Shown here piece after piece: positions 14,612 through 21,404 of a DNA stretch of 32,000 bases. The translations under genes and the position numbers were made by a program. Position 1 is the first letter of the stretch, and each line of letters begins with the position of its first letter. Origin of the DNA: Sedimentisphaera cyanobacteriorum (GTDB lineage Bacteria > Planctomycetota > Phycisphaerae > Sedimentisphaerales > Sedimentisphaeraceae); the NCBI RefSeq assembly GCF_001997385.1, contig NZ_CP019633.1, positions 2,910,001-2,942,000 of the forward strand, written 5' to 3'. The notes below the pieces were generated by a model, which was not told the origin of the DNA, did not search any database, and saw nothing but the letters and a program-made list of their open reading frames with translations.

Positions 14612-15474
14612 ATCTACGACAGTAGAAATTTTATAAGGCCTTTAGACATCATCAGGGTTATCTCGTGCGCCCAATCTACGACAGTAGAAATTTTATAAGG
14701 CCTTTAGACTTCACCTAAATGAGCCAATTCAGGCCAAATCTACGACAGTAGAAATTTTATAAGGCCTTTAGACGAGAATTATATACTCCTGATTTTTTAT
14801 ATCTACGACAGTAGAAATTTTATAAGGCCTTTAGACAATAAACACTTGATATTCTGGAGCGGTGTATCTACGACAGTAGAAATTTTATAAGGCCTTTAGA
14901 CACTTTCGTGAGAAAACCTTAATCACCTTTATCTACGACAGTAGAAATTTTATAAGGCCTTTAGACGTACCCCGTGAACTTCTTTAGCGTATATCTACGA
15001 CAGTAGAAATTTTATAAGGCCTTTAGACAAGGTGATAGTCGTTGACCCTGTAACATCTACGACAGTAGAAATTTTATAAGGCCTTTAGACCACATCCCAT
15101 AACAGAAAGGCAAGAAAATCTACGACAGTAGAAATTTTATAAGGCCTTTAGACGACAGCGGTCGTAAACATCTGTTTGGCGAATCTACGACAGTAGAAAT
15201 TTTATAAGGCCTTTAGACGCTTGAATTTCTTCTTCGTTTTTTGGAATCTACGACAGTAGAAATTTTATAAGGCCTTTAGACTTAGACGCCGCACCGAGCG
15301 ACGAGGGCAAGGGATCTACGACAGTAGAAATTTTATAAGGCCTTTAGACAATCTTTGTATTCGGCAGTAGGTTTATATCTACGACAGTAGAAATTTTATA
15401 AGGCCTTTAGACGTTGATTACAAAATCGGCAAATACGGATCTACGACAGTAGAAATTTTATAAGGCCTTTAGAC
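14612..15474 (-). CRISPR. CRISPR array of 14 identical 36-nt repeats and 13 spacers (type V-A-like repeat)
   Basis: Repeat on the minus strand is GTCTAAAGGCCTTATAAAATTTCTACTGTCGTAGAT. Plus-strand repeat starts: 14612, 14674, 14738, 14801, 14866, 14931, 14993, 15055, 15118, 15183, 15246, 15314, 15377, 15439. Spacer lengths in that order: 26, 28, 27, 29, 29, 26, 26, 27, 29, 27, 32, 27, 26. The leader-proximal end is at 15474. Confidence 0.98.
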
Positions 15475-15569
15475 GCTAATTCAAAAAATCTTTTCATAAA
15501 ACCGCTCTCAGAGCATTTAATCAAGGATTTGACAAATGTATTTAATAAGCTGAGCCTCATATCAGAACT

Positions 15570-20400: not shown

Positions 20401-21404
20401 TTAGTGAAAAATTCTTCATTGATTAAGCCATCTTTGCTGAAAACATTTTTGAGAGCTTCGGTAAGTTCGCTGTCTTTTTCGAATTCATCTATAACTACGC
20501 TCTTTTCTCTGTCGCTGAGAATCTGCTTGTAGAGCTTGGCGAAAAACGGGGGCTTATCAGAGCCCTTGAGATGGTTTTTCTGGGTGAAAAGGTTGATTTT
20601 CATATTGGCCTTCTGATCCTTCTCGTCTTTCCCGCCAATTGCGCTGATATTGTAATAATCAATTCCGGACTGGTTCATGCAATTAATGAAATATGAAGGC
20701 TTGAAGAATTCTTCAAAATCCTTTAGCTCTTCAGCAAGATCAGGGTATTTGCTTTTTATTTTTTCCAATCTCTGGCAGTTATCGAAATGCTTAACCATAT
20801 TTTCGTTTATGGTGCGAAAAGATATGGCTGTAGCCTTAGCCTCTTTGGAATACATATTTGCCCTGTTTTTATCAAAGCCAACAAAATATGTAGAAAATTT
20901 TTCGAAATATTCGATAAGCCCTGCATTATGATCAAACTCTTCCTTCTCAATCCTGCCTGCCCTGTAATTTTTTTCGAGCCATTGATAGAGCTTTGATTCT
21001 TTGTTCTTGCCTATTAATTCGTTATTTTCCCCCATTACAGCCCATTCCTTAGTGGCTTTGCTGAACATGGCTGCAATTTTTTTTCTGAGATGCTCGTATT
21101 GTTTAGTTAATGTTTCGCCGTCTTTCTCTTTCTGGGCTTCTTTATAGAGCTGATAAGTTTGCTTGAAATCTTCTTCGCTTAAAGTTTGCTGCCTTGCAAA
21201 GGCCTGTTCTATGAAATCCCTGTGGTATGAATCAATAACTTCTTTGAGCTGCTTGTAAGCCTCTGTCCTTTCGCGGTCTTTTTCAACAGTCTGCTTGAGC
21301 CCTCCACTTTTGAAATCTTCAATTTTTTCTGCTGTCTCTCCAACAGGACGAAGCTCAAATCGGAGCGTTTTGGTAAGAGAATACTGATTGGTGAATTCCT
21401 TCAT
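17472..21404 (-). CDS. cas12a: type V-A CRISPR effector Cas12a (Cpf1)
   Basis: 1310 aa. N-terminus [23 protein letters not shown] matches the conserved Cas12a N-terminal motif (compare SKTLRFELIPQGKT). Ruv[15 protein letters not shown] (Asp codon 18627-18629, residue 926). Ruv[10 protein letters not shown] (Glu codon 18357-18359, residue 1016). RuvC-III [15 protein letters not shown] (Asp codon 17598-17600, residue 1269). No HNH insert. Crowded His/Lys segment [13 protein letters not shown]…[20 protein letters not shown] resembles the Cas12a pre-crRNA-processing site. Confidence 0.95.
   Translation of the reverse strand: [1310 protein letters not shown]

Follow-up and report, generated by a model that had tools for sequence, protein, structure and literature searches.

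The 32,000-nt window considered here, meaning the whole stretch of DNA that was analyzed (NZ_CP019633.1, positions 2,910,001 to 2,942,000), comes from Sedimentisphaera cyanobacteriorum, a planctomycete (class Phycisphaerae) whose source of isolation was a hypersaline microbial mat. The window contains a CRISPR-Cas locus with a single large effector. Four consecutive open reading frames (ORFs) on the minus strand are followed on that same strand by a leader and a CRISPR array, in the order cas12a-cas4-cas1-cas2-leader-array. An initial annotation, made before any database search, had described one minus-strand operon encoding a very large protein, then cas4, cas1 and cas2, ahead of a leader and array, and every one of these elements was found where it had been placed.

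All four cas ORFs are intact and full length relative to their profiles. The cas12a (cpf1) gene (17472-21404) encodes a protein of 1310 amino acids (aa), identified by TIGR04330, Pfam and PDB matches. It is followed by a type V cas4 (16859-17449; 196 aa), which scored 230 bits with TIGR04328 cas4_PREFRAN (cut-off 70), matched Pfam Cas_Cas4 and keeps the four-cysteine signature (C27, C182, C185 and C191). The reading frame of cas4 overlaps by 7 nt that of the type V cas1 (15906-16865; 319 aa; TIGR04329 cas1_PREFRAN, 408 bits, cut-off 300; Pfam Cas_Cas1). The module ends with cas2 (15619-15894; 91 aa; TIGR01573, 45.5 bits against 24.5; Pfam CRISPR_Cas2). A type V (PREFRAN) adaptation module, cas4-cas1-cas2, thus separates the array from the effector gene.

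The leader (15475-15618) is 144 nt long and AT-rich, with 33% G+C, and the array (14612-15474) consists of 14 identical 36-nt repeats and 13 spacers. On the other side of the operon, the region upstream of cas12a (21405-21656, minus strand) extends from the ATG to the end of an element of the insertion sequence (IS) family IS3. An AGGAG ribosome-binding site is located 8 nt 5' of the cas12a ATG.

The Pfam and NCBIfam scans took in all non-nested ORFs of 100 aa or more across the window, together with cas2, the IS3 orfA and a 74-aa ORF in the leader. None of them belonged to a Cascade, Csm, Cmr or HNH family, in agreement with what had first been reported. The 74-aa ORF (15441-15665) spans the leader and first repeat, had no family match and is probably spurious. 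Taken with the evidence on the effector and repeats given below, we hold with great confidence that the locus encodes a class 2 type V-A (Cas12a/Cpf1) CRISPR-Cas adaptive immune system on the chromosome of this member of the Planctomycetota. It appears, from its genes and repeats, to be intact and ordinary.

The effector protein and its predicted fold

The 1310-aa protein scored 1032.3 bits with NCBI's curated Cas12a/Cpf1 equivalog hidden Markov model TIGR04330, whose cut-off is 300. Residues 2-1309 are placed on profile positions 2-1288 of 1288, so the profile comparison proposed in the initial annotation came out in favor of Cas12a over the full length. Five Cas12a-specific Pfam domains occur in canonical order (REC1, REC2, PI, RuvC and Nuc), namely REC1 at residues 51-295, cas_Cpf1_2nd at 310-541, Cpf1_PI-like at 705-770, RuvC_1 at 906-1309 and NUC at 1096-1254. 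No Pfam match to an HNH domain was found in the protein.

The motifs quoted beforehand were each recovered at exactly the given residues: a 12-residue N-terminal motif at residues 13-24, D926 in IGIDRGER, E1016 in VLEDLN and D1269 in a 13-residue motif. In HMMER alignments, D926 and E1016 of RuvC I and II correspond to FnCas12a D917 and E1006, D1269 of RuvC III to FnCas12a D1255, and the Nuc arginine R1226 to FnCas12a R1218. These four columns are invariant in a family alignment of 45 members, which bears out the claim that the catalytic residues are intact. The predicted CRISPR RNA (crRNA)-processing RNase residues H853, K862 and K879 align with FnCas12a H843, K852 and K869, and the lysines predicted to read the protospacer-adjacent motif (PAM), K567 and K644, align with AsCas12a K548 and K607. 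K567 and K879 fall in columns at least 90% conserved in the same family alignment, and the PAM-interacting (PI) motif IPKCSTQLK is shared unaltered with AsCas12a. As judged from these alignments, every residue that defines the known activities of Cas12a is present.

The description of the protein as a "RuvC-only nuclease" therefore stands in part. The RuvC domain is there, but a Nuc domain and a separate predicted crRNA-processing RNase site are there too, and the protein is not strictly RuvC-only.

The best sequence matches of the protein among solved structures are all Cas12a, led by ReChb (949 bits), FnCas12a (745), MbCas12a (733) and Lb2Cas12a (688), with AsCas12a (~625) and LbCas12a (~622) behind them. 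An AlphaFold2 (AF2) model of residues 111-1310, built from the 45-member family alignment, had a mean predicted local distance difference test score of 75.8 and a predicted template modeling (TM) score of 0.60. A Foldseek search of the PDB with this model returned Cas12a chains for all of the top 50 matches, with E values down to 1e-71 and TM scores of 0.53-0.65, and so the structural comparison suggested at the outset also led to Cas12a and nothing else. Identity in the structural alignments was 43% with ReChb, 35-36% with FnCas12a, 36% with MbCas12a and 32-33% with LbCas12a and AsCas12a. The global root-mean-square deviation of the model from the PDB chains was 9-15 Å, a large value, as expected when a single predicted conformation of a protein with two hinged lobes is set against structures in different functional states.

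Repeats, crRNA handle and spacers

Read in the sense of the cas genes, and hence of the crRNA, the repeat is GTCTAAAGGCCTTATAAAATTTCTACTGTCGTAGAT. It occurs in 14 exact 36-nt copies, as had been counted earlier, and separates 13 spacers, each unique and 26-32 nt long (mean 27.6). Its 3' end is the canonical Cas12a handle, AAUUUCUAC-UGUC-GUAGAU, and its last 20 nt, AAAUUUCUAC-UGUC-GUAGAU, are predicted to form a hairpin in which a 5-bp stem (UCUAC/GUAGA) closes a 4-nt loop. This 20-nt end is the 5' handle of a Cas12a crRNA. Regularly spaced arrays with AAUUUCUAC-loop-GUAGAU were found in 57 of 83 related genomic loci, in all but one of the 57 on the cas12a strand. The crRNA handle of FnCas12a, AAUUUCUACUGUUGUAGAU, is one loop base apart from that of the window. 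The exact handle with the UGUC loop recurs in one of the related loci, L061, from a Zetaproteobacteria metagenome-assembled genome (MAG), and the single loop base by which the window differs from the relatives fetched (see below) is therefore an ordinary variant.

Type V-A systems are expected to work without a trans-activating crRNA (tracrRNA). The longest anti-repeat or repeat-like match outside the array was 11 nt, which is at chance level (E = 0.16 for the 32-kb window), and there is thus no tracrRNA candidate in the window. Rfam at gathering thresholds returned three tRNAs only and no CRISPR-DR family. The exact 36-nt repeat was absent from the GTDB species-representative genomes, a collection evidently without the S. 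cyanobacteriorum genome itself. A possible 15th, degenerate terminal repeat at about 14554-14589 (by eye, CTCTACGCAGCGAGAAAG...) was rejected, as its local alignment score of 24 compared with a mean of 23.5 for shuffled sequence and was equaled or bettered in 225 of 500 shuffles.

When the 13 spacers were pooled and compared with GenBank phage records totaling 2.3 Gb, the sole match was that of the 12th spacer from the leader, TTGGCCTGAATTGGCTCATTTAGGTGAA (14710-14737, minus strand), which resembles the major capsid (F protein) gene of Microviridae and matched two genomes of that family. The agreement with positions 1455-1482 of PQ006401.1 was 26 of 28 nt, with a pooled E value of 0.1. Translated in frame, the spacer reads W-P-E-L-A-H-L-G-E where the virus has W-P-Q-F-A-H-L-G-E. 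A codon-degenerate search of IMG/VR for the spacer peptide found 50 contigs, nearly all of them about as long as a microvirus genome (4-5 kb). The peptide is exact in 12 of the 50, and the others listed differ by one residue; the best nucleotide identity to the spacer in IMG/VR was 25 of 28. In one of these contigs (L019), the ORF bearing the spacer-like site is a Pfam Phage_F protein (387 bits). Homology to a Microviridae capsid gene is likely given the in-frame peptide, the IMG/VR peptide matches and the Phage_F ORF, and at least one spacer probably derives from a small single-stranded DNA (ssDNA) phage of the Microviridae, to judge by these matches. The sites found are homologs of the spacer target and not the true protospacer.

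A codon-degenerate version of the capsid-like spacer had no match in metagenomes, and the other spacers showed nothing above 15-nt chance matches in the 50 microvirus contigs. With regard to self-targeting, the longest spacer match within the window was 14 nt.

The mechanism is most likely the textbook Cas12a pathway, by analogy with established Cas12a biology. The array would be transcribed from the AT-rich leader, and Cas12a itself would cut the precursor crRNA (pre-crRNA) just 5' of each stem-loop by means of H853, K862 and K879, yielding a crRNA made up of the handle AAUUUCUACUGUCGUAGAU and then the spacer. The crRNA-Cas12a complex would read a T-rich 5' PAM with K567 and K644 and form an R-loop. 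Its single RuvC site (D926, E1016 and D1269), aided by R1226 of the Nuc domain, would cut the non-target strand first and the target strand second, and the outcome of these sequential cuts would be a staggered double-strand break. New PAM-selected spacers would be added by Cas4-Cas1-Cas2 at the leader end.

Three sets of putative expression signals came from consensus scans. A sigma-70-like site in the leader, TTGCAA-17-TATAAT (15598 to 15570, minus strand; 10 of 12 consensus positions), would be the promoter of the pre-crRNA, and a terminator-like hairpin with a T-rich tail (14578-14596, minus strand), 16 nt past the last repeat, possibly marks the end of that transcript. Promoter-like sites upstream of cas12a are predicted at 21642 to 21613 and 21532 to 21505, both on the minus strand.

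Arguments for and against a working type V-A system

Several observations weigh against the view of a complete and working immune system. Expression and activity of the locus are predicted from sequence alone, and the promoter and terminator consensus scans showed no enrichment over shuffled sequence. An exact protospacer was found for none of the 13 spacers in the GenBank phage or plasmid collections, for neither of the two leader-proximal spacers in an exact search of IMG/VR, and not for the capsid-like spacer in IMG/VR and the JGI metagenomes. The 26/28 match to Microviridae with its pooled E value is, taken alone, borderline. In both GenBank microviruses the 5' flank of the spacer-like site is TCTA, not TTTV. 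Finally, a complete-looking IS3-family element (21657-22944, minus strand; orfA 22579-22845, orfB 21701-22525) sits between cas12a and tRNA-Lys with its end ~250 bp upstream of the cas12a ATG, and could affect cas12a transcription. The element has imperfect inverted repeats of 50 nt (21657-21706 and 22895-22944; 72% complementary), and no clear target-site duplication was seen on reading its flanks.

The flanks of the microvirus sites are compatible with a T-rich 5' PAM but do not establish one. Among 51 IMG/VR sites, which are homologous sites only, the commonest 5' flanks were ACTA (10), TCTA (9), ATTA (7), ACTT (5) and TTTA (5). The spacer-like site in the microviruses directly follows a Phe-Tyr codon pair, so that a synonymous change from TTC to TTT would yield the canonical TTTA. 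A structure of the LbCas12a complex with the non-canonical PAM TCTA (5XUT) is among the PDB matches of the AF2 model.

The presence of the IS3 element and its 50-nt inverted repeats so close to the start of cas12a raises the question of whether a genuine type V-A locus is now silent or decaying, either transcriptionally uncoupled by the insertion or no longer acquiring spacers, and confers no immunity today. The IS-rich surroundings (IS5 element, 11734-13098; IS4-type element, 28466-29707) and the lack of an exact protospacer in every collection searched point in the same direction. We nevertheless regard this as unlikely, since the four cas ORFs are full length with every functional residue intact, and the 100% identity of the 14 repeats argues against decay. 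Between the IS3 element and the ATG there are still some 250 bp of native sequence, which include promoter-like sites and a good ribosome-binding site, and absent protospacer matches are normal for poorly sampled habitats. That the effector is instead of a different type V subtype (Cas12b, Cas12e/CasX or Cas12k), or is a transposon-associated RNA-guided protein, could be argued from the transposases that flank the locus and from a partial match of the RuvC region (residues 881-1133) to the Cas12e/CasX model NF045604, but this match of 72 bits lies far below the cut-off of 200 and covers the shared RuvC core only, whereas the match to the Cas12a model is full length. Cas12b, Cas12e and Cas12k all require a tracrRNA, for which the window offers no anti-repeat; the RuvC triad is intact, unlike that of Cas12k; and the nearby transposases are of the IS3, IS5 and IS4 types, with no Tn7-like tnsB, tnsC or tniQ in the window. 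All structural neighbors of the AF2 model are Cas12a as well, and an assignment to a different subtype or to a transposon, which we consider extremely improbable, is refuted as far as sequence allows.

Relatives, neighborhood and significance

Within the type V-A assignment, the protein is identical to AQQ10487.1/WP_077541740.1 of S. cyanobacteriorum, encoded on a 2.95-Mb contig. Its name at deposition was "hypothetical protein", and RefSeq and UniRef call it "type V CRISPR-associated protein Cas12a/Cpf1". It is an already annotated gene of a known kind, an ortholog and not a new system. This agrees with the view taken in the initial annotation, which had spoken of a possibly uncharacterised ortholog, and no paper on a Sedimentisphaera Cas12a was found. 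A search of the available library for Sedimentisphaera with Cas12a or Cpf1 found no link, and the three papers there in which Sedimentisphaera and CRISPR both occur mention them only in passing. No other protein falls into its 90%-identity cluster. Relatives are encoded by at least 574 genome assemblies of a species-representative collection.

The nearest relatives, in Sedimentisphaerales MAGs of the same bacterial family, share 46% full-length identity with the protein and 47-48% in the multiple alignment. They are Sedimentisphaeraceae bacterium JB056 (P0003/L053/L056) and a Sedimentisphaerales MAG, OY762711.1 (P0006/L054/L057). Their repeats are also 36 nt long and begin with GTCTA as in the window, while the loop of the handle is UGUU instead of UGUC. 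In OY762711.1 the order cas12a-cas4-cas1-cas2-array is that of the window, and the array (L054, 13924-16350) is split by an IS110-family transposase gene (14949-15995) with repeats on both sides. In JB056 (L053, 8001-13530), cas12a is directly followed by an array of ~15 repeats; no cas4-cas1-cas2 was found in the 8 kb fetched downstream, so the adaptation module is missing or elsewhere.

The handle AAAUUUCUACUGUUGUAGAU / AAATTTCTACTGTTGTAGAT is common to the three relatives fetched, namely the two Sedimentisphaerales MAGs and Thiomicrospira sp. XS5, and the strand logic of their operons is the same as here. TsCas12a of strain XS5 (P0010) shares 42% full-length identity with the window protein, and its operon order is identical, although its host belongs to a different phylum (Pseudomonadota). 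Its 36-nt repeat carries the handle AAAUUUCUACUGUUGUAGAU, and its array is larger, with ~36 repeats. Immediately upstream of TsCas12a lies a gene for a WYL/WCX-domain helix-turn-helix (HTH) regulator (L055, 6955-7938), where the window has the IS3 element instead. TsCas12a has been used experimentally, e.g., in HOLMES detection (PMC5913299), and is the nearest ortholog confirmed as experimentally used.

FnCas12a of Francisella novicida U112 (PDB 5MGA, 5NG6, 5NFV and 6I1K) is of similar length, 1300 aa compared with 1310. About 65% of residues differ between the two proteins in the structural alignment, whereas the catalytic, RNase and Nuc residues of FnCas12a all align with the window protein. 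The PI-domain region (query ~600-712) aligns poorly with FnCas12a and better with AsCas12a and AmCas12a. ReChb (PDB 8QWD/E/F), a resurrected ancestral Cas12a, is described as reconstructed from orthologs of hydrobacterial phyla and as PAM-relaxed (PMC12724276). It is a synthetic protein of 1261 aa, relative to which the window protein has ~60 extra residues between WED-II and PI (query 610-713 versus ReChb 625-667). Its top rank among the solved structures reflects a consensus-like sequence that is expected to score well against any member of the clade, and no special relationship.

The whole CRISPR-cas-IS3 block of ~9 kb is bracketed by tRNA-Phe(GAA) (13991-14064, plus strand) and tRNA-Lys(UUU) (23045-23118, minus strand). 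The G+C content is 43% for the whole window and 39.7% for the cas operon, compared with ~44% in both flanks. The tRNA bracketing and the lower G+C of the operon would fit horizontal acquisition as an island. In addition to the IS3 element, the window contains an IS5-family transposase gene (11734-13098, plus strand; NF033578, 504 bits) and a DDE_Tnp_1/DUF4372 transposase gene of the IS4 type (28466-29707, plus strand). With three IS elements in 32 kb, the neighborhood appears plastic.

A type II restriction-modification-like cluster (5604-8415, minus strand) encodes a 353-aa D12-class and a 268-aa N6_N4-class methyltransferase, along with an HTH protein of 104 aa and an ORF of 142 aa. With 48 bits, the last of these covers only positions 13-145 of 244 of a PADLOC profile for type II restriction enzymes. 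The nuclease of the cluster may be truncated, and the methylases thereby orphaned. A SocA/Panacea-domain antitoxin gene (27215-27685, plus strand; 156 aa) overlaps by 14 nt a 145-aa ORF (27672-28109, plus strand) that had no match in Pfam, NCBIfam or PADLOC, and the two (27215-28109) are candidates for a toxin-antitoxin pair whose toxin is unclassified. An 851-aa ORF (340-2895, plus strand), which adjoins mutS (2934-5564), was likewise without a match in the three collections, as were smaller ORFs at 10814-11551, 13126-13677 and 25302-25859.

It is conceivable, though we would put little weight on it, that a lineage this divergent, in a planctomycete from a hypersaline mat, has properties usefully different from those of the Fn, As and Lb enzymes, for example a relaxed or C-tolerant PAM or unusual salt tolerance, and that it may naturally target ssDNA Microviridae. 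A C-tolerant PAM is named as an example because TCTA occupies the PAM position in the microvirus homologs.

For basic biology the locus is of little import, type V-A being among the best-studied CRISPR types and the protein already correctly named. Its practical value is that of one more divergent, apparently intact Cas12a ortholog to screen for PAM, temperature and salt behavior. Its ecological value lies in the record of a CRISPR-Cas12a system in the Sedimentisphaeraceae with a spacer probably derived from the Microviridae.

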